Assembly: GCA_002269645.1 (NCBI GenBank)
Contig: NIVC01002654.1
Span: 1-57,370 of the forward strand
From: Macrostomum lignano
Lineage: Eukaryota
Length of the DNA stretch: 57,370 bases
Direction of reading: 5' to 3'
Shown here: positions 530-47,262 of the stretch, in pieces
How positions within the stretch are numbered: position 1 is the first letter of the stretch
Layout of the letters: every line of letters starts with the position of its first letter
Notes under the pieces: generated by a model
What the model was told of the DNA's origin: nothing
The model's database searches: none
What the model saw: the letters and a program-made list of their open reading frames with translations, nothing else
Translations under genes and position numbers: made by a program

Positions 530-2308
530 GTCGACCGGCAGGTGTTTATCAGGCGCCTCTGCGCCCTCCTCTGCTATGTTTGTGTCGCCGCTTGAGACAT
601 TGCAGGCAAGTCAGTTGAGTTTGTGTGCTAGACTCTGCAAACAAGATTTGAAAGCTTTTTAAATTTTTTAATTTTCCTAAGCAAATATTTTTCGTCTAAG
701 TTATGATTTTTAAAAGACATATACAAAGGCTGAAAATAATAAACACTAAAGACCTGGGTTACTACTGAAAATTCCCTGTAATTGTGTTCATCGATGTAAA
801 CATTATATTTATTGAAAGCATTGTACATGCTTCTTGAATCCACATTCAACGAATACCATTTAAGATAGTAAAATCCGAGCTACAATAATTTTCCCAGAAC
901 TATGTATTGAGGTAATTAGCTAAAGTGTGCCTACCATGAAATTCCGATATTTAGCAATATAAATCTAAATGAATTATAAATAAAACGTAACGATATGATC
1001 AAATTAATTCATGTAATTCTCTATTAGATTCATCCTGACTCTTCCCGTAGAATGATTAGTTATTACTCAATTATCAAAAAAATATTAGAATAGATTATAT
1101 AAAAACTCTGATTAAACTACACAAAAAGAAAATTTTAAACCGAAACGTAACACATTAAACAATGGTAAAAAACATTTGTTTAAAGAATTTTGAAAACTAA
1201 CTAGAAGTTGGTAAATGGCAAAGACACAAAATTCTACAAAAGTTGAAACTAATATTTAGAATTTCGAAAGAATTATTATTACAGTACACCAATAAGAACG
1301 CAACATACAGGTTTGCGTATTTCCAAGGTAAAGAATGTTTTAAGATTCATTCTAATCAAAGCCACTGAGTTGTCAAGGCGATATTTTTATGCTATCTTAA
1401 GAATATAAAACTTTTTTTTCATTTTAAACATGTATTTTGAAAAACAAAAGAGAACCATGTTTCGTGTGTAAAGTACCTAGACAAATAAAGCAAACCTGTT
1501 TTCTTATACTTGTCACTGAATTTGCTATACGCGCAAATTTGAAACGTAGGAAAAGTTGCAGGCAAAATTTTTATAATTAACTTTTAAACGATCGATAGTT
1601 TCAATCTGATAATCTCAAACCACGCACTGATTCACTTAGTGTGACTCAGCCTTCAGTTTCATTTACTGATCTATCTTATAGCTTATAGTACAAATACTTT
1701 CTATAACACATTAGACTAGAGTTTAGAGTGTAGTTGTAATAATTCTAATTTTACGCCCAAATTTGCAGGCTAACAAAGCTGTTTGACAAACTCGATTTAT
1801 CAGCATACGGTTAGGACTGCAAGTTGTTTTATTCCCATCTGGTTTGGCCTTTCACTTAAACAGTTGCACCAGTAAATTGCAGTAATACAGTAGGCCTATT
1901 GTTATTGTTAGGTATAATAACAAGTACTAGGCCCTGTAGCTTAAAATATAAAACTGCTTAAAAACGAAAGTATCTGGAAACAATGAAAATACAAATTGTT
2001 TCTATCATAAACTTCTATGCCTTGTTCTTGCTTCTGATATATTTGCTCTGGAGTATACATGTAAGTTGAAGTTTAAATATTTTGATATTTTAGTGGCTGA
2101 AATAAATTAAAGTTAAAATAATTCTTATTGTTTTGTTGTTTTAAAGCAAATTTAACTAGATTCTTGATGTAAAAGTATATTTAGCTATTGTCAAGTTCTA
2201 TAATTATATTACTAATAATATACCTAATAAATGTTTGCCATTGTACACACATACTATTAAAGTTCTAAGCCTCAATATAAAAAAGAGGAGATATGGGCAA
2301 AGTGAGAC

Positions 2309-2316
2309 TGTGAGAT
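2309..2316. repeat. Target-site duplication (tgtgagat), left copy.
   Basis: Identical 8-mer immediately flanks both ends of the TIR element (second copy at 4253-4260). Confidence 0.7.
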
Positions 2317-4252
2317 GGTCCCTGACATTTCGGTGACAAGACGTTTCGGTGACAGCCTTTTCGGTGACAATTTAGGACGTTTCGGTGACAAATTTAGACA
2401 ATTCGGTGACATGTTTTAAAAATGAAAGTTAATTTTGTCTGTAAGATAATAAACTCATGAACAAGACTTTTATACTCAGACCTCGTCATATTTTATTGTT
2501 TTGCGTTGATTTCATAACTGACTTTGTTATATCTCTACACTTAAAAAAGGGTCATCTGCATTTCTAGATAAGGTCAGTCGGCCGACGCGACACGTCAAGT
2601 CGCCTATTTTACACATTATAGCGGCATCATTTTTGCGACACTATCTGGATATATACCTGTGTTCAAGGCAATTTGTGTAAAAAATGTACATGTAGCATAT
2701 TTTCATGATCAAGTCGCCTGATCGATCTACTGTTTTGATGCAAACAAAGTTGTGGTTGTTGTATAGTTTGTTACTCTACTATCAGGGCTATGGAAGAAGG
2801 GGCCAGGACATTCCATTGCTTTATCCCAGCTGAACCCCGACCCCACTTTAATTTGTTGACCTGTTATATGGAAATAATGTATATACATGAAGAAATTTAG
2901 TCATGTACAATCTACATGTACAATTGTTGGCATGGTAGACCGGTAGACTGTTAATTGGCTGTATGATTGCTGACCATATTGACCAGGAAAGTCAAAGGAA
3001 AGAGGAGGGAAAGGACGTGAGGCCACTAAGTTAATAAATTGCATAGTTCACTTTTCAGAACTTACTTTAAATGTTTATTGCTATGCTACGTAAATAGGCA
3101 ATTCCAGTATTTAATCTTTCTTCATTGTTTGATCGATATTAGCACCTTTGATAGTTCAAATGTTGCAAAACAGTAAAGCTCGTTAAGTGAACCAATTGGG
3201 CTTAGTGAATTGAATTTCGATATCTACATGTATTTAATTACTAACAATGCTAATTCTAGAATGGCAACAAGCAACAATGATTTGGTTGCACGTTAATTGC
3301 TACCGTGATAAAGCAAAATCATTGCTAGCAGAGAAGCATTGCTTGTACGGTGATATAATGTTTGCTTTTGCCACGACACTAGGGTTAGCAAAGTACATGT
3401 AGAACAACGGCCATTGCGTATGAAATATGAATGGGCCCCCCCCATGAATTTAAAGACTCGGTATCCGAGAGGCGCTACGACTATATACATGTAACTTCTA
3501 CCAAACTCGAGCGATAGTTCTTCGAATTCTAGACGCATGCATAATTCACGGCTCTGCTGGTTCTAACCTTTAATCAGTCAAAATTTTAGTTATTTAATGG
3601 ACGCGATTACTGCCCAAAATGCAACAAAAAGCTCTTCTGCACTTATTTTAGCGCCGCGTCTGCACTTATTTTAGCGCCGCATCTGCACTTATTTTAGCGC
3701 CGCATCTGCACTTATTTTAGCGCCGCATCTGCATTATTTTAGCGCCGCATCTGCACTTATTTTAGCGGCAGTAGCTGCACTTATTTCAGTGCCGCAGGCA
3801 ATTTTGGTGCCGCAGGCGCTATTTTTTGCCGCCGTAAAACATGCACATTATTGATTTCCGTATATAACAGGTCAACAAATCAACAAACTTGACGTGTCGT
3901 GTCGGCCGACCATCAGTGTCACAATCACGTAGCAGAATAGGACACGTTTTTTTTCGGCTTCAGAAGCAGTCAATACATGTTTTGTGTACGAAAATGTATT
4001 CAGCCCGGCCGACTGACCTTTTCTAGAAATGCAGATTACCTTTTTATTCAAGTGTAGAGATATAACAAAGTCTGTTACAAAGTCAACGCAAAACGATAAT
4101 ATATGACGAGTTCTGAGTATTAAAGTCTTGTTCATGAGTTTATTATCTTACAGACAAAATTAACTCATTTTAAAACATGTCACCAAATTGTCTAAATTTG
4201 TCACCGAAAAGGCTATCACCAAAACGTCTTGTCACCGAAATGTCCAGGGACC
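2317..4252. mobile_element. Non-autonomous TIR DNA transposon (1936 bp) with about 280-bp terminal inverted repeats and an 8-bp target-site duplication. It is hAT-like by TSD length (P and Merlin are also possible) and is inserted into the 3' end of the mariner element.
   Basis: 2317-2600 (ggtccctgacatttcggtgacaag...) is the reverse complement of about 3888-4252 (...cttgtcaccgaaatgtccagggacc). Subterminal tttcggtgaca motifs recur 5 times. The flanking 8-mer tgtgagat is identical at 2309-2316 and 4253-4260. There is no transposase ORF inside; the interior carries a 23-bp tandem array. Confidence 0.75.
3590..3800. repeat. Tandem repeat of a 23-bp unit (ctgcacttattttagcgccgcat), about 8 copies, internal to the TIR element.
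   Basis: Direct inspection. The same unit (reverse-complemented, gcgctaaaatgagtgcctgcggc) recurs at about 20020-20100 and 31030-31090. Confidence 0.8.
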
Positions 4253-4260
4253 TGTGAGAT
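4253..4260. repeat. Target-site duplication (tgtgagat), right copy.
   Basis: See left copy at 2309-2316. Confidence 0.7.
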
Positions 4261-4262
4261 CA

Positions 4263-5227
4263 GGTTTTTCTCAACATAGTCTCCCCCAACCAAGATGCAC
4301 TTATGGCATCTTGATTGCAGCGCCTCAATATTACTCTTGGAAGAATTGCACCAAGCAGCTCTCAAACCAAGCAATTGCAGCATCCTTCAGCATATCATTA
4401 GTGTTAAATCGCTGTCCACAGAGTGCCCACTTAAGATATAGAAATAGGTGGAAGTCGCTTGAGGCCAGGTCTGGTGAATAGGCTGTGTGTAGCAGCTCTC
4501 AGAACCCTGTGACACTGACAGCAGCCTTGGCAATCCTGCTGGTGTGGGCTGGTGCATTGTCGTGCAGCAGCACAACACCTCGGCTCAGCATCCCTTGCCT
4601 ATTTTCCTTGATTGCCTCGCATAGATGGGGCGATTAGGTCAGCGTAATAGGCGCCTGTGACTGTGACTATCTGCTTGTGCGGTAGAAAGTCCAGCAGCAG
4701 CGGGCCCTTGGCATCCCAGAAGACGGTCAGCATAATCTTGCCCGCACTGCATGCAGTCTGTGCCTTCAGTGGTGCAGGTGAACCAACTGGCAGCCACTGC
4801 TTAGACTTGGGATCGTGGTGATAGATCCATATCTCATCCCTGGTCACGCAGCAAGACAGAAAATTGGCAGGGTCCAGATCATAGGAGTCTAGGACAAGCT
4901 TTGAGTACTGCACCCATGCAGTCTTTTGGTCCTTGTCAAGATTTGTGGGATCCATCTGGCAGAAACCTTGGACAGATGAAGATACTAGTATAGGATCTCA
5001 ATGACTTGCAGGTCAGAGTCTAGTATATGTTGCAAGTTGCCTGACTTTCACCTGCCAGTCACTGTCAACCAGAGCCTGGATGCGCTAGATGTTGTTGGCT
5101 GTGACAGCAGTCTAGGGCGTCCATATTAGGGGTCATCTTTGAGCGAGTCACAGCCTCGCTTGAACTTGGCTGCCTAGCGCTTGATAGTGAAATATGAGGG
5201 GGCAATGTCAGCGTACACACTAGCCAT
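4263..5227 (-). pseudogene. Mariner transposase pseudogene with multiple stops and frameshifts.
   Basis: ORFs 4599-4955 and 4387-4578 (-) plus adjacent frames match the mariner D,D34D transposase. There is an in-frame stop right after codon 17 and further stops or frameshifts. The C-terminus (...KCILVGGDYVEK) abuts the nested insertion at 4262/4263. Confidence 0.7.
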
Positions 5228-6708
5228 GGGGCTTTGAATTTCAGCAGGCTTTGAGCCTTCCAGAGTCAGAAATTTGACCACTGCCCTGTGCTCAAGCTTC
5301 AATTCTTAAGAAAATGCCATGGGGTGCTAGAAATAAAATGGTGCAGTGGGACTTAGGGAATGCAGAAAATTCTAAAAAGTTGACAATAGACTATTAACAT
5401 GTGGCACTTTTAGAGCCTAAAGTTTCAACATTTTGCCACTATAAGATCTTGGTCAGGCTCGGAACTTTTTTAGTGCCCCTGTACTATTGTAGAATTAGCA
5501 AAGCATATAATAAATATGTGTAACAAAGATATAATCTATAGATAATGATAGTCTTTAAATAAAATTTTAGTTTTAGTCTTAAGGACTTTAATAAGGGTCC
5601 TTTGACTTTCTGAGTCTTTTAAGATAATTAAATTTTAGTAAAATGAAAAATAGGTTCTTTTAAAATGAAAAAATATTATAACAATAATATTAATTTAATT
5701 ATATAGAATTTCCAATTAAAATGTTTAATTTTCATTTCCAATTATTAAATATTAAATTTTATATAGAAAGTTTAAGATATAAAAATGCTTCAAATCAAAC
5801 CATTTTAAAAAGTAAGACACTATATCTTTTTTACTTTGGAAAATGAAACTTATCTAATAAAATGACTTATAAAATTTCATTAGGCTTTAGGGTCTAAAGT
5901 CCAGTAAAGTCCCTAGGGCCTAGTTTTAGTGAATTCAACTTAAACTTTAAGTTTTGCTTAGATAAATGAAATATTTATTTTAGATTAGTAGTAATACTTA
6001 TTGTGTATTATCTTATAATTTAATTTTTAATGTAATGTTTTTGAATGAAATTGTGCCAATATTTTTGTATATACTAACTAAATTGACTTACATTGTTATA
6101 AAAATATTATAAACTCAATTTTTAAGACCTTTATTAAAATAGAGAATAGTAAATGCCTTAAATAATTAAATAAGTTGTTATAAAGCATCAACAAGTGAAC
6201 AATAAACATCAAAGTTGAAAAGTGATGTTTGCTTTTAAAGGCTTGCAAGTTTTTAATAAATATTCTAACTAGACAATGTAGGGTCGACTTGGAAAAATCT
6301 AGCCTCCAAGATATATATGGCTAAGGTTTCTATTTCTTTTAAGCTCTCTTTTCTTTTCTTTCTCTTATCTTCTCTTCTCTCTTGTCCTCTTATCCTCACC
6401 TGGCTTTTGTTCTAGATGTCACCCATTTTTTATCCAGTTTTGGGGGTTCTTTCTAGGAAAAATCCAGAGAAAAGAAATGCATAAGTTGCACTCTTGGGTG
6501 AAAACTAGAATTTTAGCTAGATGAGTTGTTGGACCATTGTTTGACCCACATAATATAGAGCCTTATGTTTTGAAAAGATTGCTTTTATAATTCCTGCTTG
6601 TATATAGAACAATATTTTGAGACATCAGGCTATGTAGCTAGTTTATATTTAGCAAATCAACCTTTTGTCAATAATTAACAATTATTCTTCATTTTTCAAC
6701 CTTTTTAG

Positions 6709-6959: not shown

Positions 6960-7240
6960 TAAGCCTAGTCAAAAAATTAGGAAAAGTCGGGGGTTCGATT
7001 CTCGACCCACTCAGAACAATTTGTTTCCTTGAGCAAGACACTTAACTCTACATTGCTTCAGTTCACCCAGCTGTAAAATGTGTGGCCAGCATTAGCTGGG
7101 GTAATTAAGGGTGTGTGGCGACCCCCCAGTCCTTGGACTGAACAGCCTTCAGATGCGCCGCGCAATAGCTGCAGCTGAGCTGTCGGTTGCACATCTGCCT
7201 ATTAGGGCAGATTTAATCAATTATTATTAATACTTTGAAT
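6960..7240 (+). mobile_element. tRNA-derived SINE (family A), copy 1, lying in the intron between exons 6709-6864 and 7359-7903.
   Basis: About 85% identical to the reverse complement of 41780-42096. B-box-like ggttcgattctcgaccc, shared core cttgagcaagacacttaactct...cagctgtaaaatg(g)gtg(c)cagcattagctggggtaa, and an A/T-rich tail taatcaattattattaatac. Confidence 0.6.
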
Positions 7241-7358
7241 AAAGTATAAACTACGGAAAATATGAAGCTTAAATTAAATGGCAACCAAGGTGCCAATTTG
7301 CTATCTGGGCCCCCAGAAATGATCAGTAAAAGTCGTTTACCCGTGTTGCCCTCTTCAG

Positions 7359-7903
7359 AACGCCGCAGAGTTGAAATCAACAGTTGGGCTTCTCTGGAGC
7401 CGCAGTTTCAAGCGCCAGGGTTTCAACCCAACAGGCGTCACATCGGCTTCTTGACGGTCCGCCTGGCTGACGAGAACTCAACTAGCGGCCTCACCGAGTG
7501 GCTCTGGTCTCAGAAATTTGAATTCACCAGCTGCGGTGTTGAGAATCGGTCAGCTGTCTGTCTGTGCGATCCGGTCAATTCTTACAATGGTACGGAGTGC
7601 AGGCCCGGCTCACCGGACTGCCGCTGCACTCCGCAGGCCACCAGCTCAGACTGCAGCCTGTGCACCGACGGCACCTACAGAGATTATTCCCGCTACAGTC
7701 TTGGCTGTATCTCTTGTCAGTGCAGTCCGCATAACTTTGCCGGCCCGTGCGCCTGGAGGCACGTCGGCGACCCCGACTGGAGCCCTGGCGGCAGCGGCGG
7801 CGGTGGACTTAGCCAGCGAGTGTGCATCGGCTGTCGGCACGGGTTTGTGGGTGACAACTGCCTGGCGCCCAGAGATAATAGCGGCATGGGCCTGGCGGCT
7901 AAG
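7359..7903 (+). CDS. Coding exon encoding a laminin-type EGF-like / cysteine-rich ectodomain.
   Basis: ORF 7262-7948. Acceptor ccctcttcag|aa at 7358 and donor AAG|gttggt at 7904. Spacing CxCxxxxxxC...GCISCQCSPHNFAGPC...CIGCRHGFVGDNC is typical of LE/EGF-like repeats. Confidence 0.6.
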
Positions 7904-8009
7904 GTTGGTTATTATGTCTGCATAGTTTTTACTGTTTTTCTATGGTGATTTCATTTTATTTAAAATATTGCTCATCTTTTAAAGTATCTTATCTCATTTG
8001 TCAAAGATT

Positions 8010-8570
8010 TGCGTCTCAACATTATAATGTCACTCTCATTATCATGTAGTCACTCTTATTATCACTTAGTCACCCTTATTATCATATTGTCACTCTCATT
8101 ATCATATAAAGTCACTCTTATTATCATATTGTCACTCTCATTATCATATAGTCACTCTCATTATCATATAAAGTCTCTCTTATTACCATATAAAGTCACT
8201 CTTATTACCATATAGTCACTCCTATTATCATATTGTCACTCTTATCATATAGTCACTCTCATTATCATATAGTCACTCTCATTATCATATAGTCACTCTC
8301 ATTATCATATAGTCACTCTCATTATCATATAAAGTCTCTCTTATTACCATATAAAGTCACTCTTATTACCATATAGTCACTCCTATTATCATATTGTCAC
8401 TCTTATCATATAGTCACTCTTATCATATAGTCACTCTCATTATCATATAAAGTCACTCTTATTACCATATAAAGTCACTCTTATTACCATATAGTCACTC
8501 TGATGATCATATAATCACTCTTATTATCATATAGTCACTCTCATTACTGCATACTCGCTCTCCATCGCAC
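8010..8570. repeat. Minisatellite, about 20-21-bp unit (tcactctcattatcatatag), about 27 copies, in intron 2 of the TM gene.
   Basis: Direct inspection. Confidence 0.85.
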
Positions 8571-8589
8571 TGCTCAAACACCCGCTCAG

Positions 8590-8868
8590 ATATTCCTGGT
8601 CCTGGCCTGCCTGCTCTGCTCACTCGCTCTGCTAGCCGCCTTTGTCATTCTGCGGCGCCAATGCCGGCGCCGAGCTCAGCGCGCCGCGCGCCACTCCCTG
8701 GCCGTTCAGCGCCTATTCAGCCGGTTCAAAGACGACACCAGCTTGGAGGCGGAGGCCGCGGAGTCCAGCGCCATCTTGGCTGAGGATGACGACTTGCAGA
8801 GGGCCACTCAGCAGCTGAGGCTGGGCGCTGACCCCGTGTACCAGCCTACCACCGTCTCCATCACGTGA
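8590..8868 (+). CDS. Terminal coding exon: transmembrane helix (IFLVLACLLCSLALLAAFVIL), a basic stop-transfer (RRQCRRRAQR), a 70-aa cytoplasmic tail, and a TGA stop at 8866-8868.
   Basis: Acceptor cccgctcag|atattcc. Phase 0 matches the previous exon (...GLAAK|IFLVLACLL...). 93 open codons. Confidence 0.6.
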   Translation: MFLVLACLLCSLALLAAFVILRRQCRRRAQRAARHSLAVQRLFSRFKDDTSLEAEAAESSAILAEDDDLQRATQQLRLGADPVYQPTTVSIT

Positions 8869-8876
8869 TCTGCTGA

Positions 8877-9410
8877 GTAGGCTAGTGTCAGATCCAGTTG
8901 CTGACAGTGTCATAGAGAGGGTGTCAGATCCTGTTACTGACAGTGTCATAGAGAGGGTGTCAGATCCAGTTACTGACAGTGTCATAGAGAGGGTGTCAGA
9001 TCCAGTTACTGACAGTGTCATAGAGAGGGTGTCAGATCCAGTTGCTGACAGTGTCATAGAGAGGGTGTCAGATCCAGTTGCTGACAGTGTCATAGAGAGG
9101 GTGTCAGATCCAGTTGCTGACAGTGTCATAGAGAGGGTGTCAGATCCAGTTACTGACAGTGTCTTAGAGAGGGTGTCAGATCCAGTTGCTGACAGTGTCA
9201 TAAAGAGGGTGTCAGATCCAGTTGCTGACAGTGTCATAGAGAGGATGTCAGATCCAGTTGCTGACAGTGTCATAGAGAGGGTGTCAGATCCAGTTACTGA
9301 CAGTGTCTTAGAGAGGGTGTCAGATCCAGTTGCTGACAGTGTCATAAAGAGGGTGTCAGATCCTGTTGCTGACAGTGTCATAGAGAGGGTGTCAGATCCA
9401 GTTACTACTT
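8877..9410. repeat. Minisatellite, 36-bp unit (gtgtcagatccagttgctgacagtgtcatagagagg), about 15 copies, just downstream of the TM gene stop. Each unit contains an inverted repeat (tgtcag...ctgaca).
   Basis: Direct inspection. ORFs 8713-9381 (-) and 8885-9469 (+) are in-frame repeat artefacts. Confidence 0.85.
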
Positions 9411-9974
9411 ACAGTGCCACTAATTCAAGCTACATGTCGAAGCACCTCGTTTATCACATCCGGTATTAGTTTTTTGTGCTAAAATTTTCAAAGTTCTGCA
9501 CCATTTATCAGCATAGACTGCAGACAATAGAGCTATAGTTGCACTGTTAAACACCGTTTTTATTTATCAGCTATTAATTTTATGGTTCGCGCATTTTAAT
9601 ATCCCAAATTTAACCAACACGCTCCCAATTTTTTATTAGTTGTTAGTTGAATACGCAACTCGCATGTCCAGTGCGCATTGGTCATGATATAGCTTCATCA
9701 TCTCCACGCGGTGAATTAAGGTGTTCAATGTACCCTTTAGTTACTGATAGCTTAGACTAACACGCAAATGTTGTGAATTTTATTGTTATAAAATATTTTG
9801 GCTGTGTTTTTACACTAATAATTTCATTTAGAATCACTAAGTCATAACTCATAATTGGAATCTGTCACAGTGTCTTGTATATTCTGTTGGTATATGTTTG
9901 ATGAATTTTTCTTATCTATTCATTATTGTCTGGTGATCGGATTTTTATTTATGCGCTTTTTTGCTTTATCCAGG

Positions 9975-10180
9975 TTTGTTCGATTCTGAGTTAATAGCCA
10001 ATCAGATCGGGTCAGGAGAGGCGGGACTGCAATGTACATTGAAGACGAACTCGTCCCCCGCAGCCAATCAAATCGGGGCTGTATGTACATTGAAAAAAAA
10101 ACTCGTCCCCCGCAGTCAATCGGATCGGAGCAGGAGACACTTTGATAAAGTGTGCAAAGTTTGCAAAACAGAGTATAAAT
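9975..10180 (+). promoter_or_regulatory. Promoter-like module: about 60-bp direct repeat (2.5 copies) carrying three CCAAT boxes (gccaatcagatcgg), a GC box (gaggcgggac), and a TATA-like tataaat about 60 bp downstream.
   Basis: Motif inspection only. No convincing downstream coding exon was found. Confidence 0.25.
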
Positions 10181-11479
10181 TTTTATACCAATTTTAAACA
10201 TCCGCGTCATATGGTTTGAATTCAATTTTTCCGGTTTCAACTTTTTTTCTGTCTTGGTTTGGCTGTGCTTTTCTCGTTTAAGCTGCAACATTGCTATTGT
10301 CTTAATTTACCGTGTGAAATCTTTTCCATTTCTAGCGATTATTTCTGAGCAGCTGTTAGCAGTGTAACTATATAAAGTACATGTTTATATTGGTTACTTA
10401 TATCTACTACTTGTGAAAGACGCACAGCTTATGTTAAACCAGCGGCTGCTTAGCAGAGATGAATATTGTGAGCAAAGTTGGTAATAATGTTATTTTTACT
10501 CGCTAAATATATCAGATGCAACTTGCACAACTATCTCTATCACATAAAAAACGTTAAAGATTTTGTTTCAATAATTTCATCAATAAAGATTTGCGCCTAG
10601 CGAATAGGACTAGAAGTGGTTTGCAGTGAAACGCAGTGTGTATTTTAAAAATAAAACAGACACAACAAATTAAACAAGCGTAATAAAACTTACTACTACT
10701 GAAGATAGAAGTTATTAGTAGTAAGTAATGCAACCAGTAGCCAAAAAAGACGTGCGTGCGTAAGAGAGAATGTTTTTATCTACTGATACGATTCAGCAGA
10801 TTCGTGCACTTATATATTTTTAACTTATTTTAACAAACACGATTGACAGATAAGACTATTGGACTGGAATCCAGTCAGACCTTTATCCAGTCAGTCTCGT
10901 ACTGAAGAGTAGTACAGGCAATACGCATTGTAAAAGTACGCGTGTACTTTACTATTGCAAAAGTACATGCGCACTTTACTTGATCAAAAGTTGTGTACGT
11001 TTGTACACACGCAAGCCAAATGTACATGCATTATAGGGAAAAGTACCTCTAGTACTTAACCGAGAAAAGGAGCAATAATAAAATGAAGATTCGCTAAGTG
11101 TAATGAGTCATAGTATGGATACAAATCAAACTCAATAAGAGCACTAAGAAGCCGTAAAAATTCGAATACTTCGCACAAAGAGTAAAGCGTGGTGAGTTCT
11201 GTCCTGACTCCAGTCTGATCCATCACAAACTTAAGTTATATATTCTATTAAAGAGCAATAATAAAGGATTAGTTTAACAACAATTCGACAGCTGATGAGG
11301 ACTGAGGGATGCCGTTAACAGAAGATATCCGCATTATAAGTATAGTTTTGTAAGATCTGCATACGCTATTGAACAGAATCATTAAATTAAAATGTTTTCT
11401 GGGTGTTGAATAAAATGAAGGAATTGAAGAAATAAAAACAGTGTGCGGAAACAGAGGAAAAGACAGGTGGATGGATAAA

Positions 11480-12110
11480 AAGACTAAACACGGTGGTATT
11501 AACGGAACAACACATGAATGGGAAGGACGCAGGGAGATGAAGGGAAGAGACTGAAATAAGGGAAGAAGAGAAGAGACACAGTGAGATGAGAACAGACACA
11601 GGGAGATGAAGGGAAGGGACGCAGAACGATGAGAAAAGACACAGTGAGATGAAGGGAAGAGACGCAGGGAGATGAAGGGAACAGACCCAGTGAGATGAAG
11701 GGAAGAGACTGAGGTGAGGAGAACAGACACAGTGAGATGAAGGGAAGAGACAGTGAGATGAGGAGAACAGACCCAGTGAGATGAAGGGAAGAGACACGGT
11801 GAGATGAAGGGAAGAGACACAGTGAGATGAAGGGAAGAGACAGTGAGATGAGGAGAACAGACCCAGTGAGATGAAGGGAAGAGACACGGTGAGATGAAGG
11901 GAAGAGACACAGTGAGATGAAGGAGACAGGTCCAGTGAGATGAAGGGAAGAGACACGGTGAGATGAAGGGAAGAGACACAGTGAGATGAAGGAGACAGGT
12001 CCAGTGAGATGAAGGGAAGAGACACGGTGAGATGAAGGGAAGAGACACAGTGAGATGAAGGGAAGAGACAGTGAGATGAGGAGAACAGACACAGTGAGAT
12101 GAAGGGCACA
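11480..12110. repeat. Minisatellite, about 23-bp unit (gagatgaagggaagagacacagt), about 27 copies, directly 3' of the CRELD stop.
   Basis: Direct inspection. ORFs 11269-12109 are repeat artefacts. Confidence 0.85.
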
Positions 12111-12112
12111 GG

Positions 12113-12450
12113 TTATCTCCTGCCGGCGTGCAGGTAGACCCTATCCAGCACAGAGCTCTGCTTGCACAGATACCAACCAGCCAAGCAGGCGGCCACTGTC
12201 ACAGGCGCTGGCCGACCCTTCACCGCCACAGCGAACACAGCCAGGCCAACGATAGCGCCGAAAAACTTAGCAAACTCGATGCTGTAGGCCACTGTCCAGA
12301 TCAGCTTAGGCGGCTTGCCTTTCTTATTGCCCGACTGGCCTTTTTTAGTCTGCTTTGAGTTGGCCGACTTCTTGCTTGACGCTGCCGGTTTTGGCACGCA
12401 TTGACTGCCCGAGCGCTGGTAGCCTGGCTGGCAGTCGCACCGGTAGCTGC
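12113..12450 (-). CDS. CRELD: CRELD (cysteine-rich with EGF-like domains) exon 4: end of the second cbEGF, a polybasic linker, two C-terminal transmembrane helices, and the stop.
   Basis: Acceptor ttccacag|GCAGCTAC. The join ...CVNLPG|SYRCDCQPGYQRSGSQCV completes a cbEGF exactly. The tail FFGAIVGLAVFAVAVKG...AGWYLCKQSSVLDRVYL aligns with human CRELD1 FFGIIICALATLAAKG...TGYWLSERSDRVLEGF. Stop at 12113-12115. Confidence 0.75.
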
Positions 12451-12479
12451 CTGTGGAACAGGGATGAGACTAGAAATGA

Positions 12480-13620
12480 GTCTAGGAATGAAGTCTGAGG
12501 TAAGATCGGACAGATAGAATACAGGGTCGGACAGATAGAATCCAAGGTCGGACAGATAGAATTTAGGGTCAGACAGATAGAATACAGGGTCGGACAGATA
12601 GAATCCAAGGTTGGACAGATAGAATACAGGGTCGGACAGATAGAATACAGGGTCGGACAGATAGAATCCAAGGTCGGACAGATAGAATCCAAGGTCGGAC
12701 AGATAGAATTTAGGGTCGGACAGATAGAATCCAAGGTCGGACAGATAGAATCCAAGGTCGGACAGATAGAATCCAAGGTCGGACAGATAGAATCCAAGGT
12801 TGGACAGATAGAATCCAAGGTCAGACAGATAGAATCCAAGGTTGGACAGATAGAATCCAAGGTCGGACAGATAGAATACAAGGTCAGACAGATAGAATCC
12901 AAGGTCGGACAGATAGAATCCAAGGTCGGACAGATAGAATACAAGGTCAGACAGATAGAATCCAAGGTCGGACAGATAGAATTTAGGGTCGGACAGATAG
13001 AATCCAAGGTCGGACAGATAGAATTTAGGGTCGGACAGAAAAAATCCAAAGTCAGACAGATGGAATCCAAGGTCGGACAGATAGAATTTAGGGTCGGACA
13101 GATAGAATCCAAGGTTGGACAGATAGAATCCAAGGTCGGACAGATAGAATCCAAGGTTGGACAGATAGAATCCAAGGTCGGACAGATAGAATCCAAGGTT
13201 GGACAGATAGAATACAGGGTCGGACAGATAGAATACAAGGTCGGACAGATAGAATCCAAGGTCGGACAGATAGAATTTAGGGTCGGACAGATAGAATCCA
13301 AGGTCGGACAGATAGAATTTAGGGTCGGACAGATAGAATCCAAGGTCGGACAGATAGAATTTAGGGTCGGACAGAAAAAATCCAAAGTCAGACAGATGGA
13401 ATCCAAGGTCGGACAGATAGAATCCAAGGTTGGACAGATAGAATCCAAGGTCGGACAGATAGAATCCAAGGTCGGACAGATAGAATCCAAGGTCGGACAG
13501 ATAGAATCCAAGGTTGGACAGATAGAATCCAAGGTCGGACAGATAGAATCCAAGGTCGGACAGATAGAATCCAAGGTCGGACAGATAGAATCCAAGGTCG
13601 GACAGATAACATCCAGAGTC
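12480..13620. repeat. Minisatellite, 21-bp unit (gtcggacagatagaatccaag), about 54 copies, filling CRELD intron 3.
   Basis: Direct inspection. ORFs 12301-13698, 12345-13655 and 13060-14046 are in-frame artefacts. Confidence 0.9.
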
Positions 13621-13631
13621 GGACGGCTCAC

Positions 13632-14102
13632 CTGGCAGGTTAACGCATCTCTCATACGGCCCCGTACAGTGTGGACTGTCCGGGCTGCATTCGTTCACGT
13701 CTTGACAACCGGATCCGGTGGTCGCGGGTTCGAATCCTGGCGAACAGGCGGTGCAGCCGGCCTGGCCGGGTCCGGAGCAGGCGGAGCAGGCCCGGTCGCA
13801 GTCGCCGCACCGGTAGCTGCCGGGCAGGTTCTCGCAGAAGCTCCTCGGCCCACTGCACGGACTGCGGGTCTGGCATTCGTCGATATCAACACACGCGGCT
13901 CCGTCAGCTTGCTGGACTGTCTCGTAGCCGTCGGCGCACTGATCGCACTGGGTGGCCAGCGGACCGGTGCAGGCGCTTCGACAAGCCGGGCTGCAGGCTT
14001 TGCATTCGCCGTTGCTCTCGCCGTTGGCGCGGTAGTATTTGGCTGAGCAGTCCGAGCACTGAGCACCTGAGTAGCCCGGGTGACAGTCACATGCGCCAGT
14101 GC
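13632..14102 (-). CDS. CRELD: CRELD exon 3: EGF/furin-like repeats and cbEGF (TGACDCHPGYSGAQCSDC...CVDIDEC...CQDVNECSPDSPHCTGPYERCVNLPG).
   Basis: Acceptor tccaaatatcag|GC and donor CCAG|gtgagc. The 471 nt have no stops and align collinearly with human CRELD1 SGHCDCQAGYGGEACGQC...CVDIDEC...CLDVDEC. Confidence 0.85.
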
Positions 14103-14379
14103 CTGATATTTGGAATTATAAGGGAGATTGCTTCACTGGTAAACACCTGTCACGGTTAGCACTTAGCAGTTTAGCTGCAACTGGAGGGCAAAGGCCCAAT
14201 CAGTTTACAGTACAGACAGAAATAATCTGTAAACGGACACAGACATGAACTCAGGGCAGACACAGACAAACTCAAAGTGGACACAGACAGACTCAGAGAA
14301 AACAGGCACACTCAGAACGGACAGACAAACTCGAAGTAGTCATAGACACACTCAGAGAGGACACAGACACTCAGAAAAG

Positions 14380-15560
14380 GAGAGGACACAGAAAATCTAC
14401 AACGGACACAGACAATCTACAACGGACAAAGACAATCTACAATGGACGCAGACAATCTATAACGGACACAGACAGTCTATAACGGACACAGATATTCTAA
14501 CAACGGACACAGACAATCTACAATGGACACAGACAATCTACAATGGACACAGACAGTCTATAACGGACACAGACAATCTACAACGGACACAGATATTCTA
14601 ACAATGGACACAGACAATCTACAACGGACTCAGACAATCTACAACGAACACAGACAATCCACAACGGACACAGACAATCTACAACGAACACAGACAATCT
14701 ATAACGGACACAGACAATCTACAATGGACACAGACAATCTACAACGAACACAGACAATCTATAACGAACACAGACAATCTATAACGGACACAGACAATCT
14801 ACAATGGACACAGACAATCTACAACGGACACAGACAATCTACAATGGACACAGACAATCTACAACGGACACAGACAATCTACAACGGACACGGACAATCT
14901 ACAATGGACACAGACAATCTACAACGGACACAGACAATCTACAACGGACACAGACAATCTACAATGGACACAGACAATCTACAATGGACACAGACAATCT
15001 ACAACGGACACAGACAATCTACAACGGACACGGACAATCTACAATGGACACAGACAATCTACAACGGACACAGACAATCTACAATGGACACAGACAATCT
15101 ACAATGGACACAGACAATCTACAACGAACACAGACAATCTATAACGAACACAGACAATCTATAACGGACACAGACAATCTACAATGGACACAGACAATCT
15201 ACAATGGACACAGACAATCTACAACGGACACGGACGCAGACAATCTACAACGGACACGGACACAGACAATCTACAACGGACACGGACACAGACAATGTAC
15301 AACGGATACGGACACAACGGACGGTCGGACACAGACAAACTACAACGGACACAGACAATCTACAACGGACACAGACAATCTACAACGGACACAGACAAAC
15401 TACAACGGACACAGACAATCTACAACGGACACAGACAATCTAAAATGGACACAGACAATCTACAACGGACACAGACAATCTACAACGGACACAGATAGTC
15501 TAACAACGGACACAGACGATCTACAATGGACACAGACAATCTACAACGGACACAGTCCCA
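14380..15560. repeat. Minisatellite, 21-bp unit (cggacacagacaatctacaa), about 56 copies, filling CRELD intron 2.
   Basis: Direct inspection. ORFs 14245-15652 are artefacts. The unit is related (about 65%) to the intron-3 unit. Confidence 0.9.
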
Positions 15561-15566
15561 GCTCAC

Positions 15567-15717
15567 CGGTCCGAGTCCCGTTCCCATTGCAGTCGCCGCG
15601 GCCGCCGGAGCAGTCGGGGCAGGGCGCGCACTCCGGTCCCCAGCGGCCGTAGACGCAGCAGGCGGCGGTGCCGTTGACGCAGACAGAATCGCGCAGGCTG
15701 GCAGAGGTCGGGTTGGC
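15567..15717 (-). CDS. CRELD: CRELD exon 2 (ANPTSASLRDSVCVNGTAACCVYGRWGPECAPCPDCSGGRGDCNGNGTRTG).
   Basis: Acceptor ctctcccgcag|GCC and donor CGGACCG|gtgagc. It matches human CRELD1 LCSDSLKLCCPAGTFGPSCLPCPGG...CEGEGTRGG. The phase joins exon 3 to give CNGNGTRTGGTGACDC. Confidence 0.85.
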
Positions 15718-15929
15718 CTGCGGGAGAGATGCCCGAGTGTTTTGGATTTTTTGGTAATTCAATAAAAGAAGAGGCTGATGAGAAATCAGCTTTAGGTAAC
15801 GGACAAAAAGTCTGTCAAGTTTATATCCTCAAAGATTTTGATTGTAAAATTTCTGTATTTTTTATCACATCCAATGCTTAATAACATTTTCAAATATAAG
15901 ACATTCCTTAAATCCCGAGACACTCCTGA

Positions 15930-16160
15930 CATTCCAAGAAATTTCCCACACCCAGACATTTCCCACACCCCAGACATTTCCCACACCCCAGACATTTCCC
16001 ACACCCAGACATTTCCAACACCCCAGACATTTCCCACACCCCAGACATTTCCCACACCCCAGACATTTCCCACACCCCAGACATTTCCCACACCCCAGAC
16101 ATTTCCCACGCCCGACATTTCCCACACTACAGACATTTCCCACACCCCAGACATTTCCCA
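15930..16160. repeat. Satellite, about 17-18-bp unit (ccccagacatttcccaca), 5' block, in CRELD intron 1.
   Basis: Direct inspection. Confidence 0.85.
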
Positions 16161-16164
16161 ACCG

Positions 16165-16603
16165 CAGAGACATCAGGGCGGTTACCATGGCCCTCTCGGG
16201 TCATGGCTGCTTTGCCAGGCATCGTTACCTCCAGGAAAAAATCCGCAGTGAGGAATGCCCTTTCTGCCTCTCCGGTGTCGAGAATGCGGAGCACTTCATC
16301 TGTGAATGCCCCGCCTTTACTCAGGACAGGCTCACCTACCTCGGCCCAAACCCGGACCTCTCCGACGTTTTCAGGCCCGAGAATCTCTGCCAGCTCGTCC
16401 GCTACCTAAGGGCTACCGGGCGAGCGACAATCCACCTCCTGGACTCTCCGGAGGGGGACCGCGCTGCGGACGCCGGCGCCACCGGAACTCCCTGCGCGAC
16501 ACCGCAGCACTAGCTGCCCGTGGTCGCCAGGGGTTAGCGAAATGGGCGGCAACGCCTCCTCGCTGTTTCCGGACGCACGGAGCCCCCTGCAGCTAAGTCA
16601 AGT
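16165..16603 (+). mobile_element. 5'-truncated non-LTR retrotransposon (Jockey/CR1/L2-type LINE) 3' end: the ORF2 C-terminal Cys/His motif plus 3' UTR, embedded in the satellite.
   Basis: ORF 16187-16513: ...ALSGHGCFARHRYLQEKIRSEECPFCLSGVENAEHFICECPAFTQDRLTYLG. The tGHg.F..YL......C..C....E...H....CP....R signature is characteristic of the ORF2 C-terminus in Jockey/CR1-group LINEs. The terminal 45 bp (ctgtttccggacgcacggagccccctgcagctaagtcaagtaag) recur at about 56305-56350. Confidence 0.65.
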
Positions 16604-16604
16604 A

Positions 16605-17065
16605 AGACATTTCCCACACCCAGACATTTCCAACACCCCAGACATTTCCCACACCCCAGACATTTCCCACGCCCGACATTTCCCACACTACAGACATTTC
16701 CCACACCCAGACATTTCCCACACCCAGACATTTCCAACACCCCAGACATTTCCAACACCCCAGACATTTCCAACACCCCAGACATTTCCAACACCCCAGA
16801 CATTTCCAACACCCCAGAAATTTCCCACACCCCAGACATTTCCCACGCCCGACATTTCCAACACCCCAGACATTTCCCACACCCCAGACATTTCCAACAC
16901 CCCAGACATTTCCAACACCCCAGACATTTCCAACACCCCAGACATTTCCCACACCCCAGACATTTCCAACACCCCAGACATTTCCCACACCCCAGACATT
17001 TCCAACACCCCAGACATTTCCCACACTACAGACATTTCCCACACTACAGACATTTCCCACACCCC
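16605..17065. repeat. Satellite, about 17-18-bp unit (ccccagacatttcc[c/a]acac), 3' block, in CRELD intron 1.
   Basis: Direct inspection. ORFs 16542-17141 are artefacts. Confidence 0.85.
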
Positions 17066-17303
17066 AGACATTTTCCACATCCCGGACATCTTCAACCTGA
17101 GATAGCTCCCACATCCCAAGCATTTCCCACATCCCGGACACTTCTTACCTCATACAATTCAATGTCCCAGACATTTCTCACGTCCTAGAAAACTGCGGCA
17201 ACACTAGAAATTGCCGAACAAACCCCCGGGAAAACCTTTAAGTTTTTAAAATTGTTGAACGCTTCAAAACTTTGGCACAAATCCGAAATGAACTTTCACC
17301 AAC

Positions 17304-17669
17304 CTTGAAAGCGCCAAACCAGAACTTCTCAATGTCCTCTTCAATCTTCTCTAGCATAGCGTGACACTCGCTAGAGGTCACACCGTCCATCTCATTGTCT
17401 TTGTCCTTGCAAAGCCGGTCTGTGATGTCCACCAGCCGGGTCTCGCTGAGCGCATAGGTGCCCAGCCGGGTCTCCTCCCAGTTGGTGTTGCCGCCACCAA
17501 AGTTGTCCCGAGCGGTTCGCTCCAGGCCTCGCTGGAATGCGGCAGCAATGGCGCTGCACGCTCGGCATTGGGAGCTGAGCTGTTGAGAATCTGGGCTGCC
17601 TGATCGGGCCACATGGGATATGAGTGACAGCAACAGGCCTAAAGATGCCAGTTGGTGAATGAGTGGCAT
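17304..17669 (-). CDS. CRELD: CRELD exon 1: signal peptide (MPLIHQLASLGLLLSLISHVA) and the WE/DUF3456 domain (CRACSAIAAAFQRGLERTARDNFGGGNTNWEE...SETRLVDITDRLC...FWFGAFK).
   Basis: ORF 17238-17705 (-). The track start at 17705 is a TTG; the first ATG is at 17669. Donor AAG|gttggt at 17303. Strong match to human CRELD1 CHTCRGLVDSFNKGLERTIRDNFGGGNTAWEE...SETRLVEVLEGVC...WWFH. Confidence 0.8.
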
Positions 17670-20600
17670 AGTTGAATTTTGGCTGCCTGTGTCTGAATCC
17701 TTCAAGCATGAAATGTTGTGGTAAATTGGTCTAAATAAGCAATTCAGTTTAAACTATCAAACTGCAATTTACAGCCAGTATTTTAAAAACAATAAGTAAA
17801 TAAAATAATTTTTTGTAAGGCTGGCTTAGTAAGGCATAGTAAGGCTAACCACTGCTTATTAGATAGGGTCTTCTGTGTAACTTTTTAAAAATTATATACC
17901 AATTAACCAATATGCTATATTGGGTCTTTTTCTGTGGGTACAGTTATAGTCAAATTTTTCTTTCTTCTATATTGGCAACCATAGGAACAATTGCCTCTAT
18001 CTACAATGCACATTCAAGTTTCATTAGATGTGTAAATCTAAATTTTTCTTTTATGACTTCTAATTTCCTCTGATTTGGCATTTAATTCTAGTTTAGAAAA
18101 AGATTAAAGCAGATTAAATAAATTTTTAATTAAATCATTAACATTATAGCCAAACAATTCTTAGATATTTAGTATAGGCAAAAGTAGACTCATAAGCTTA
18201 GTAAGGCCTCATATGTAAGCCTCAGAAGCAAGGTACCCTAGTACTTACAGAAATCCTAGGCTTTGGAGAGATGTTTGATACCTTAGTAACAAGCTTTTAA
18301 CTGGTTATAGAACTGCCCAATAATACAACTAATATCTTAATTGCATATAACAACCCTGCCTAAAGTAAGAATCTCCATGAGATTGTTAAATCTAGGAATT
18401 TTTTGAATATGCTAAGCTAAAACATTGCTATTTCAAGCATAAAATTCATTCATTAATTAGTTTGTTAACTAAGAAAGAGGGTCACTCTTTTGTCATAAAA
18501 AATGTGGAATATAGGAGCCTAAACTTTTCTATAGAAAATAGGTACAGTTGTAAAGTCAAAATTTTTCATTGAAAACAAAATTTTCAGCAAGGTATATTTG
18601 TAGAAATCTAAGGGTACATAAAAAGAGAATAATATTTTAATGTTTCCAATTAAAATTTACATTGGCATTGTCGTTCTATATCTAGATATGCTTAATTTTT
18701 TCTTTTGTATGATTTCTAAAGAAAAAAATGATTTCAAACTTCCAAAAACTATATATAACAACATAACTACTTGCAAAACTACATATACAGAGCAAATATT
18801 TTAGGAATAAATCTGTCACTTATTAAGTTCTCAACTATATCAAAAAAGTAATGTTTTACTAGGGGCAGTAGGGCCTAGGCCAATTTAAAATAGAATCTAA
18901 ATCTAAGAAAAGAAAAAAACAGACTTTTGAAGGTTTTCAATACTAAATTGCAAGACAAATCGAATAATAAAAGTCTTGAAATCCAAGATTTTGCCACTCT
19001 TGATGAAATTTGGGCTCAAATATTACAGGTATAAGGCAAGAGTAACCGTATTAATATTTAGTGTAAAATGCCCTGTCATATAATCAGTTTAATAAATGCA
19101 TAACTAAAAGCATTTTTATACACTTTATGCTAGTTCCTAACATATAATCCTAGCTTTAGAGCTAGAATCTAAAATTTAGAGCATATAAAAAGTTCCTCAC
19201 GAATGAAATTTAGGTACCAAAATACTTCTGTTCTGCTTGCACTTGTACGTTTTAATGAAAAATCCACTAACTCAATCTTCTACTAAACTAAAGTTAAGTT
19301 CTAGATTTCTAACTTAACTTGTTACCCGTTATAGATTAAAACCGAATATGTATCTATCATTAAAATAATACCTTTCTGGACAAATCCTAATGCCTCGCGT
19401 CACAGTATAAATTAATTAAATATACAGTTTTTAGAAATCGAATAACCTTTTCTTAGAAAGAAATTATAAAGTAAATTATCGCCATTTCGTGGCATCGATA
19501 ACGTTTGAAAAACGCATGATTAAAAGAAATAAGAACATGAAAGTTAGCACTCACATAAGATTAGCGACATGAATTTCGACTTGGGTCAGACATATTCAGG
19601 CTCATAAGTGTAATGAATGTGCGATCGAGAGAAAACCTGTGTTTGTCAAAAGTATCAGAAAGCATATATAGTATGCATTAGTCAAGCGAGATGCGATCGG
19701 GGGGCTAAGAAATCGATAGCAATAGCAACGTAGATGATTGGGAGACGGGGTGGCTGGGGTGCAGGTGAGCATACAATAAAATACAATTACACATACATAC
19801 GGACTACTATATAAACGACAATTAAGTAGTCCGTACACGTACAGTCGTACATCACTGACAATACGGAAATACAAACGATTGGTACACGTGTATTTATTAA
19901 TTGATAAATTTTGACGAAAATGTGTCAATAAAAGTCAAAATATTGTCCATTAATTGATAAAGTCAATTGCTATTGCTAAAGTCTTGCAAAGAGCTGAAGG
20001 TGTGGCACTAAAATGACTTCGCTAAAATGAGTGCCTGCGGCGCTAAAATGAGTGCCTGCAGCGCTAAAATGACTACCTGCGGCGCTAAAATGAGCGCTGA
20101 CAACACCTATTCTGAAAATAGTACATGTAGGAATTCAGTCATGTACAAATTCTTGGCTTTGTCCCCCGGGCGGTACATGTACGTTATTTCATGCAGTTTG
20201 TCGAGAGAATGTCGCACTGTTGCCTGCATGGCGCTGCAAGCACCTTACCGGCAAGCTGGACATGCAAGTACGTTAATTTCGTCGACTGCCCACAGGCTTC
20301 CGCGCCCTTGTGACTCTGCTATCATATATTCTTCATGAGTCGTTTTTATATCAGCTAGTATTGCTGTTGTTTGTGTGAATCTCAGGTCTTTGTTCAGAGC
20401 AAACATTTGAAATAGTTTTAAAGAAAACGAGGGCCAACCTCAAAGCAGAGATTCTACGTCTCCTGACGATGAGAGAGAGTCAGGACCACTATACGCCCTG
20501 TGTAAGCGCGCTCGGAGTTCGGTGGAACGGAACAGTTGTTCAAGGACGACTACCATCGGTATAAATTGATTTTAATAAAATCTTGGACTAAAGGATCGCC

Positions 20601-23359: not shown

Positions 23360-23436
23360 CTGACTGATAGCTGGTGCAGGCGGATCCGGGACCCGGCGGC
23401 TGATGCAGGAACTGAGGCTGCCATGCCAACAGAAAC

Positions 23437-39265: not shown

Positions 39266-39339
39266 AGATTCCAGAGGTAGCAAAGCCCAGGAGAGAAAAA
39301 AAGAGCAGTCATCTGAAAGAAAGTTCTCCAAATATTTTC

Positions 39340-46454: not shown

Positions 46455-46479
46455 GTGAGTCTGTCTGCATCCTCAGGCA

Positions 46480-47260: not shown

Positions 47261-47262
47261 AG

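Follow-up and report, generated by a model that had tools for sequence, protein, structure and literature searches.

A decayed mariner interrupted near its 3' end

The window analyzed here, a 57,370-nucleotide stretch of Macrostomum lignano DNA, contains a mariner on the minus strand that is divided into two pieces by a second element with long terminal inverted repeats (TIRs). The 5' segment of the mariner (4261-5481) comprises the 5' TIR (5481 to ~5450), the 5' UTR and a decayed transposase gene that runs from ~5320 down to 4267 and ends ...GDYVEK. The 3' segment (2246-2316) comprises a degenerate 3' TIR (2246 to ~2275) and the 3' UTR as far as the insertion site, its last 8 nt being the left copy of the target site duplication (TSD) of the insert. 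The TA dinucleotides duplicated by the mariner were read directly at 2244-2245 and 5482-5483, the left one being placed by aligning both mariner ends and the 3' terminus of an intact relative (contig L001). The mariner thus extends over 2246-5481 and measures 1,292 bp after removal of the insert. Its termini read CA(A)GGGGCACTAAAAAGTTC... with TA on both sides; counted from TA, the two ends match at 21 of 32 positions, and the 5' end matches the 3' TIR of L001.

The host element is a DD34D mariner of the Tc1/mariner superfamily. The piece at 4261-5481 matches the Pfam domain Transposase_1 (E = 1.2e-13), and the stitched protein is 73% identical to the intact 356-aa transposase P0001, which contains HTH_32, DDE_3 and Transposase_1 domains. 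The DD34D spacing (HDN...34 residues...SDF) was counted directly in the translation. P0001 is encoded by the closest relative, L001, an ENA metagenome contig. Both mariners have a TA TSD, a length of ~1.3 kb, TIRs of ~30 bp, HTH and Transposase_1/DDE_3 domains, 34 residues between the second and third catalytic D, and a C-terminus reading ...GDY(V/E)EK. Unlike this relative, the window copy is dead, with at least three frameshifts and ~10 stops (a tblastn search with P0001 spread the gene over three frames with ~10 in-frame stops), the outermost bases of its 3' TIR are degenerate, and it carries a 1,944-bp insertion.

These limits differ in part from those of a preliminary description of the locus, which let the reading frame run up to 4263 with the duplication following at once; the gene ends at 4267, and 6 nt (4261-4266) separate the two. 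The mariner does resume beyond the insert, as had been proposed, but from 2316 down to 2246 and not only at 2262-2308. Its right limit is 5481 instead of 5465, so that the earlier interval fell 16 bp short on either side.

Measured from its 3' tip, the mariner is interrupted after 71 bp, approximately where the stop codon of the relative aligns. L001 (79% nucleotide identity) is collinear with both mariner pieces across this point, and its 3' UTR/TIR matches window positions 2246-2308 at 41 of 54 bases. After removal of the insert, the rejoined reading frame ends ...GDYVEKNLISQSHFAHISSFLY*. Relative to L001, which is 21% diverged, 11-14 additional nt (GTGAGAC-TGTGAGA) are present exactly at the rejoined junction, and we therefore rejected L001 as an exact empty site. 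Because the intact relative aligns in order with both mariner pieces, we consider the nesting of a long-TIR non-autonomous DNA element within the mariner 3' end to be real (probability about 0.9). The insertion that the preliminary description had recognized here is thus upheld, by this collinearity and by the perfect TSD described below.

Structure and coding content of the insert

The insert is a foldback-type TIR transposon of 1,936 bp (2317-4252). It is flanked by two direct copies of TGTGAGAT, at 2309-2316 and 4253-4260, which are identical at 8 of 8 positions, as had been reported. Read directly, the left junction is ...aagtgagac TGTGAGAT|GGTCCCTGACATTTCGG... and the right junction ...CCGAAATGTCCAGGGACC|TGTGAGAT caggttttt. 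With the boundaries fixed, such a match has a chance probability of 4^-8 (~1.5e-5). A 9-bp duplication, CTGTGAGAT, is formally possible provided that the right end lacks its first G. We adopt the 8-bp reading, since it gives GGTCCCTG at both ends, while the longer one needs an asymmetric end. The TSD length, the consensus ends and the mobility of the element are all drawn from this one insertion. The GC content of the insert (0.39) departs from that of the mariner (0.48) and of the flanks (0.28), and its sequence is unrelated to both.

The two arms form TIRs of ~270 bp. The left arm (2317-2586, plus strand) consists of the terminal motif GGTCCCTGAC, five NTTTCGGTGACA units located at 2324-2411 with spacings of 16, 15, 21 and 21, and a unique subterminal part. 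The right arm (4006-4252, minus strand) begins with the terminal motif GGTCCCTGGAC, followed by four units spaced 16, 15 and 21. Both arms start with 5'-GGTCCCTG, and the linkers between the 12-bp units measure 3-4 bp and 9-10 bp; TRF likewise detected arrays of 15, 16 and 21 bp at 2324-2411. When 2317-2586 is aligned with 4252-4006, 230 positions match, 14 differ and 29 columns are gapped, giving aligned bases an identity of 94%; the gaps include one additional 21-bp unit carried by the left arm. Inverted blocks also occur farther inside the element (2577-2600/3887-3910 and 2848-2869/3862-3883), and fold-back of the outer 150 nt of each arm yielded z = -27.7. The core motif TTTCGGTGACA, allowing up to one mismatch, occurs seven times in the window, always within the insert arms (chance expectation 0.9; none of 100 shuffles reached seven). 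At the right end, GGTCCCTGGAC can be read as G plus a 10-bp imperfect palindrome, GTCC.CT.GGAC, which is absent from the left end and would be expected by chance in ~6% of cases. The interior carries a minisatellite of seven 23-bp copies (TCTGCACTTATTTTAGCGCCGCA) at 3636-3796 (TRF score 264, 91% matches; repeat family D1). The reiterated subterminal motifs noted earlier are therefore present, as five plus four units. Long TIRs of this kind had been called unusual; in fact, non-autonomous Merlins (S1 Table of PMC8101967) and foldback elements of the Mutator-like (MULE) superfamily routinely have them.

The insert is non-autonomous and without coding capacity, as no frame has a Pfam match (six frames, E<=1). 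No open reading frame wholly inside it exceeds 87 aa, and no tRNA or Rfam match was found in it. No second copy is present within the 57-kb window, and no further copies were found in the metagenome or viral contig collections searched. A scan with the probe TTTCGGTGACA-N(3-12)-TTTCGGTGACA gave no match among viral contigs and matched at least 120 metagenome contigs, which were rejected as TIR relatives for want of any TIR likeness outside the probe. Among them, contig L096, with GGTCCCT before the motifs, is bacterial and has the motif within an MFS-transporter gene; the AT-rich contigs bearing 20-bp tandem arrays lack a transposase; and high-GC contigs contain REP-like palindromes (GAGTTTCGGTGACAGTGCAC...) with no adjoining transposase. 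All were set aside as unrelated. Exact look-ups of a 228-aa flanking ORF, the 87-aa insert ORF, a 118-aa mariner ORF and P0121, aimed at allelic or paralogous M. lignano loci, returned no record. A homology search whose query combined flanking exons with insert ORF fragments returned no match, which is a weak negative, as this query may have filled the limit of 8,000 candidates. Terminal and subterminal sequences retrieved only unrelated PCR primers from full-text literature, and the M. lignano papers searched held no description of a DNA-transposon family. No autonomous partner or transposase for the insert was found in the data searched.

Candidate superfamilies and alternative explanations

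Judged from the structure of the ends alone, the insert may belong to Merlin (IS1595-like DDE) or to the MULEs (Muta/Phantom type), each a serious candidate at somewhat under even odds, with hAT, P and others sharing the rest. The preliminary description had listed hAT, P or Merlin; Merlin does fit, but animal MULEs, which were omitted, likewise have TSDs of 8-9 bp and TIRs built in the same way (PMC5225508, PMC5499845). That the insert is a non-autonomous Merlin is a tenable but tentative reading. Merlins are described with 8- or 9-bp TSDs, TIRs 24-462 bp long and termini that are always 5'-GG (PMC8101967, citing Feschotte 2004). The insert has an 8-bp TSD (TGTGAGAT twice, in one insertion), which is the commonest Merlin length, both of its ends read GGTCCCTG and so begin with the 5'-GG invariant in all described Merlins, and its TIR length falls within the range. 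Its subterminal tandem repeats begin ~10 bp from the tip, comparable to those of MERLIN2/3/5/8_CB; in Repbase, the non-autonomous Merlins MERLIN2/3/4/5/8_CB have TIRs of 135-325 bp with 17-20-bp tandem repeats beginning 9-15 bp from the tip (PMC8101967 S1 Table). By their published descriptions, MERLIN2_CB and MERLIN8_CB of Caenorhabditis briggsae and Merlin-1N1_LVa resemble the insert in their 8-bp TSD, 5'-GG termini, TIRs of 135-325 bp, subterminal tandem repeats and absence of coding capacity. They differ in the length of the repeats, 17-20 bp as against a 12-bp unit with 15/16/21-bp spacing. Merlins are known in flatworms (PMC8101967), including 10 families in Schmidtea; however, the Merlin survey has no Macrostomum entry, its supplements contain no Macrostomum Merlin protein, and M. 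lignano has no known Merlin transposase, nor was one found here. Six-frame Pfam analysis detected no DDE_Tnp_IS1595 remnant in the insert, a palindromic terminal motif is not described for Merlin, and each of the end features listed above is common to animal MULEs.

A non-autonomous animal MULE of the Muta/Phantom "type 2 foldback" kind, in which a MURA-like DDE transposase cuts by way of a hairpin on flanking DNA, is a comparably credible though equally provisional assignment. In Aedes, TSDs of 8-9 bp were reported for 14 of 14 MULE families, TIRs longer than 100 bp for 12 of 14 and 9-15-bp subterminal tandem repeats for 10 of 14 (PMC5225508, PMC5499845); the insert has an 8-bp TSD (9 bp if CTGTGAGAT, with an asymmetric end) and arms longer than 100 bp with such repeats. 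The TIR of Muta1 consists of a 10-bp imperfect palindrome, GGGTCTACCC, with the 5th and 6th nt unpaired, followed by 12-bp repeats with 3-4-bp linkers, and in its non-autonomous copies the number of repeats differs between the ends and the internal sequences are unrelated (PMC5225508, PMC5499845). The insert matches this build point by point: an imperfect palindrome of ~10 bp, G-rich, with a central unpaired CT at the right end, subterminal 12-bp units joined by linkers of 3-4 bp, five repeats at one end and four at the other, and a heterogeneous interior, as in Muta1NA1-5 of Aedes aegypti. In contrast to Muta1, its terminal motif is (G)GTCCCTGGAC rather than GGGTCTACCC, its palindrome is found at one end only, it has 4-5 repeats instead of 9, its TIR extends over another ~170 bp of non-repetitive sequence, and its host is a flatworm and not a mosquito. 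Platyhelminthes do harbour MULEs, and the Phantom group has 8-10-bp TSDs and TIRs of 18-613 bp (PMC6446971). Nevertheless, while MULE TSDs span 8-11 bp, and 8-9 bp in the Aedes Muta families, the most frequent length overall is 9 bp (PMC5225508, PMC6446971), the flatworm Curupira and Sm subgroup included. No MULE or zinc-finger remnant was detected in the insert by six-frame Pfam analysis. The palindrome, with its ~6% chance expectation and its absence from the left end, was not accepted as a firm MULE signature and is kept as weak evidence.

An origin in another superfamily with 8-bp TSDs (hAT, P, Zisupton, Novosib), or in an undescribed one, is unlikely. hAT elements have CAG/TAG-type ends, TIRs usually of 10-25 bp and the target consensus nTnnnnAn, and P elements have CA-type ends. 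The insert has GGTCC... termini, which bears out the earlier remark that they do not look like canonical hAT ends, TIRs of 270 bp and no hAT domain, and its TSD TGTGAGAT fits the consensus at one of the two diagnostic positions on either strand. The TSD length does suit both hAT and P, whose duplications measure 8 bp, long-TIR foldback elements are also on record for the P superfamily (mentioned in PMC5499845), and no transposase was found that would decide against such an origin. Much less probable still is that M. lignano here shows, for the first time, a DNA-transposon lineage not yet catalogued, defined by GG termini, an 8-bp TSD and TTTCGGTGACA arrays as putative transposase-binding sites, with a partner that is neither a typical Merlin nor a MULE. 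We regard as very improbable an explanation without any transposition, namely a local inverted duplication or palindromic rearrangement within the mariner, or an assembly artefact. Such an event would suit the single copy of the insert that was seen, the richness of M. lignano assemblies in repeats and the abundance of minisatellites in the window. Against it, the insert has sharp ends that fall exactly at a perfect 8-bp direct repeat, its arms carry a specific 12-bp unit in ordered arrays, as is typical of transposase-binding sites, the insert is unlike mariner and flanks in sequence and GC content, and its removal restores collinearity with an intact mariner.

Order of events, mobilization and significance

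As the insert lies in the mariner 3' end, the mariner sequence is older than the insert. In the sequence of events that we propose, a 1,292-bp DD34D mariner would have entered at a TA and then decayed by frameshifts and stop codons; later, the 1,936-bp foldback-type element would have entered 71 bp from the mariner 3' tip, duplicating TGTGAGAT. M. lignano is in part duplicated, and an allelic or homeologous copy of this locus with the mariner but without the insert would then be expected to read ...GGGCAAAGTGAGAC TGTGAGAT CAGGTTTTT.... A mariner already carrying the insert could instead have transposed to this site as one unit. The clean relative age previously claimed for the pair consequently holds for the mariner sequence, but which event came first at this locus is not proven in the strict sense.

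Under the transposon reading, the insert would have been moved in trans by the DDE transposase of an autonomous relative elsewhere in the genome. In Muta1, both terminal motif and subterminal repeats were required experimentally for transposase binding and cleavage (PMC5225508, PMC5499845). By analogy, the terminal motif (GGTCCCTG(G)AC) and the 12-bp NTTTCGGTGACA arrays of each arm would serve as binding sites for the transposase, which would cut both ends, make an 8-bp staggered cut in the target and join the ends there.

At this M. lignano locus, one class II (cut-and-paste) transposon is nested in another. Animal genomes rich in repeats commonly hold nested DNA transposons, and Merlin and MULE foldback elements offer precedents for all structural features of the insert; the pair is an ordinary nested repeat of small biological significance. 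It supplies clean boundaries, a TSD and a candidate binding motif for one M. lignano TIR family, which can serve for a repeat-library entry and a partner search, as well as a relative-age marker, the insert being younger than the mariner sequence. For one M. lignano mariner family, to which an intact mariner from an environmental assembly is 79% identical, it provides corrected end coordinates and a corrected consensus terminus. Transgenesis in M. lignano has so far relied on random integration, with piggyBac as a proof of principle only (PMC8717057). If the insert did represent an uncatalogued lineage, and if its partner were active, an endogenous transgenesis or mutagenesis vector for M. lignano would be possible.

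Nesting of a long-TIR element in a mariner transposon

On the minus strand, the flanks of the insert encode a mariner transposase (Pfam Transposase_1, E = 1.2e-13), and its stitched translation shares 73% identity with P0001, an intact 356-aa transposase. The P0001 ORF lies on L001 (ENA ERZ27314298, contig k141_829521, 1-1324), a 1,324-bp metagenome contig that is essentially one mariner. No mariner protein from M. lignano closer than P0001 is on record; L001 could derive from a related flatworm of the meiofauna, or the mariner could have spread horizontally. An empty site was built in silico by excising positions 2317-4260, as suggested in the preliminary description, and aligned to L001. The rejoined mariner is collinear with L001 through the insertion point, at 79% nucleotide identity, and the piece left of the insert matches the 3' UTR and TIR of L001 at 41 of 54 positions. 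From this alignment the family terminus is CA(A)GGGGCACTAAAAAGTTC..., and the window copy therefore spans 2246-5481 (1,292 bp without the insert), with TA duplications at 2244-2245 and 5482-5483, instead of the 2262-5465 proposed initially. This copy is dead: the P0001 match is split over three frames, with about 10 in-frame stops. The DD34D spacing is still legible. The ...GDYVEK segment has its final position at 4267, and the insertion point lies 71 bp from the mariner 3' tip, roughly opposite the L001 stop codon. GC content is 0.48 in the mariner and 0.39 in the insert, against 0.28 in the immediate flanks.

Direct reading of the left (...aagtgagac TGTGAGAT/GGTCCCTGACATTTCGG...) and right (...CCGAAATGTCCAGGGACC/TGTGAGAT caggttttt) junctions places the insert at 2317-4252 (1,936 bp). 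The TSD copies, TGTGAGAT at 2309-2316 and 4253-4260, form a perfect 8-mer pair as first described; an 8/8 match has a chance probability of about 1.5e-5, and the boundaries were taken as fixed. An 8-bp reading is preferred over a 9-bp one because both ends of the insert are then GGTCCCTG. The window has 11-14 extra nucleotides at the junction (GTGAGAC-TGTGAGA) compared with L001; being 21% diverged and devoid of these nucleotides, L001 can neither certify the exact empty site nor settle whether the duplication is 8 or 9 bp long. A near-copy, AGTGAGAC, directly precedes the left TSD (2301-2316), and three GTGAGA 8-mers thus surround the insertion (2301-2316 and 4253-4260). The extra near-copy and the corresponding gap in L001 could be the footprint of an old excision, a product of replication slippage or simply divergence.

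The TIRs, the TSD and the collinearity with L001 confirm the observation of a non-autonomous element nested in the 3' end of a mariner and support its core interpretation; this is an ordinary nested transposon. The proposal that the mariner came first holds for the sequences, the mariner being older and the insert younger, but need not extend to an insertion event at the present locus, because a mariner already containing the insert could have arrived as a unit.

Arms and interior of the insert

Both arms are genuine terminal inverted repeats. Their core alignment (2317-2586 versus 4252-4006) contains 230 matches, 14 mismatches and 29 gap columns, giving 94% identity at aligned bases, and one gap corresponds to an entire additional 21-bp unit in the left arm. 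Two further inverted blocks lie deeper within the insert, and the outer 150 nt of the arms fold onto each other with z = -27.7. Both arms start with GGTCCCTG, followed by repeats of the 12-bp unit NTTTCGGTGACA: the left arm has five (spaced at 16, 15, 21 and 21) and the right arm four (spaced at 16, 15 and 21). Across the 57-kb window, seven copies of the arm-motif 11-mer (at most one mismatch) are present, compared with 0.9 expected, and all seven are within the arms. The insert is non-autonomous: the longest ORF in its interior is at most 87 aa, six-frame searches detected no Pfam domain even at E<=1, and tRNA and Rfam scans of the insert gave no match. The interior contains a minisatellite (3636-3796, 23 bp x 7).

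A homology search with a composite query (flanking exons and insert ORFs), limited to 8,000 candidates, returned no matches, and no DNA-transposon family is described in the M. lignano papers. Scanning metagenomes with the tandem arm motif matched at least 120 contigs; among the matches listed, all were unrelated to the insert: some contain REP-like palindromes of bacteria, others AT-rich tandem arrays, and one match falls by chance within a bacterial gene. High-GC bacterial contigs from JGI metagenomes (L093:11370-11550, L108, L117, L085:1357-1520, L107:954-1085, L071 and L068) carry intergenic palindromic clusters assembled from GAGTTTCGGTGACAGTGCAC(A/T)CATCGCG and the complementary sequence, apparently a family of REP-like repeats. 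They are unrelated to the flatworm insert and account for the large excess of the 11-mer pair over chance in metagenomes.

Genomic environment of the nested element

Elsewhere, the content of the window is consistent with an animal genome. We found minus-strand exons of an MFS_1 transporter (21848-24420), 99% identical to M. lignano BOX15_Mlig016045g2, a minus-strand DUF3456 (canopy/MSAP-like) exon (17238-17705) and plus-strand exons of a POU-domain and homeobox gene (44586-47229). The latter are flanked on either side by oppositely oriented copies of a ~290-bp repeat (43133-43426, plus; 54610-54899, minus) starting GGGGCCGTAGCCCAATGGT..., probably a tRNA-derived SINE since its head is tRNA-like. 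A plus-strand laminin-EGF-like ORF (7262-7948), for which no annotated protein is on record, is overlapped at its start by one of two oppositely oriented copies of a ~320-bp dispersed repeat (6981-7292 and 41732-42060). The minus-strand 366-aa GIY-YIG ORF at 38074-39174 (Pfam 2e-07), with reverse-transcriptase-like sequence upstream, is a Penelope-like retroelement fragment. Minisatellite density is unusually high, with dense arrays at 8000-17200, 25700-28000, 39250-40400 and 47000-52900 (periods of 16-44 bp, each array with dozens of copies) and a CT-rich tract of 1.2 kb, and many long spurious ORFs therefore appear on either strand.

Superfamily affiliation and possible transposition of the insert

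Among the candidates initially put forward (hAT, P or Merlin), Merlin fits and hAT fits poorly, and MULEs had been left out. hAT elements have CAG/TAG-type termini and an nTnnnnAn TSD preference; the insert lacks such termini, its TIRs are far too long and its TSD satisfies only half of that preference.

According to PMC8101967, citing Feschotte 2004, the defining features of Merlins are TSDs of 8 or 9 bp, termini invariably starting 5'-GG and TIRs of 24-462 bp. The build of the insert is common among non-autonomous Repbase Merlins, many of which have TIRs of 135-325 bp and 17-20-bp tandem repeats from 9-15 bp inside the tip, e.g., MERLIN2/3/4/5/8_CB (PMC8101967). MULEs account for the TSD length, long TIRs and subterminal repeats equally well: in Aedes aegypti, 14 of 14 families have 8-9-bp TSDs, 12 have TIRs >100 bp and 10 carry 9-15-bp subterminal tandem repeats (PMC5225508, PMC5499845). 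Long TIRs with reiterated motifs, called unusual at the outset, are thus common in both groups (PMC8101967, PMC5225508, PMC5499845), and flatworms harbour Merlins (PMC8101967) as well as MULEs (PMC6446971). In the 145-bp TIR of Muta1, one of these Aedes MULEs, the imperfect palindrome GGGTCTACCC (10 bp, unpaired at positions 5-6) precedes nine copies of a 12-bp repeat spaced by linkers of 3-4 bp; non-autonomous Muta1 derivatives differ in repeat number between ends and have unrelated interiors (PMC5225508, PMC5499845). The right end of the insert shares this design (G+GTCC.CT.GGAC, then 12-bp units with 3-4-bp linkers), but the palindrome is missing from the left end and its chance expectation is about 6%. 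As these features fit Merlin and MULE equally and hAT poorly, we assign a probability of about 40% to Merlin and the same to MULE; any other superfamily is unlikely.

The boundaries, TSD, TIR structure, non-coding nature and nesting of the insert are direct observations, and its transposition is modelled on Muta1, which has been dissected experimentally, and on general DDE cut-and-paste transposition. In this model, a transposase acting in trans would bind to the terminal motif and to the NTTTCGGTGACA array, excise the insert and integrate it at an 8-bp staggered cut.
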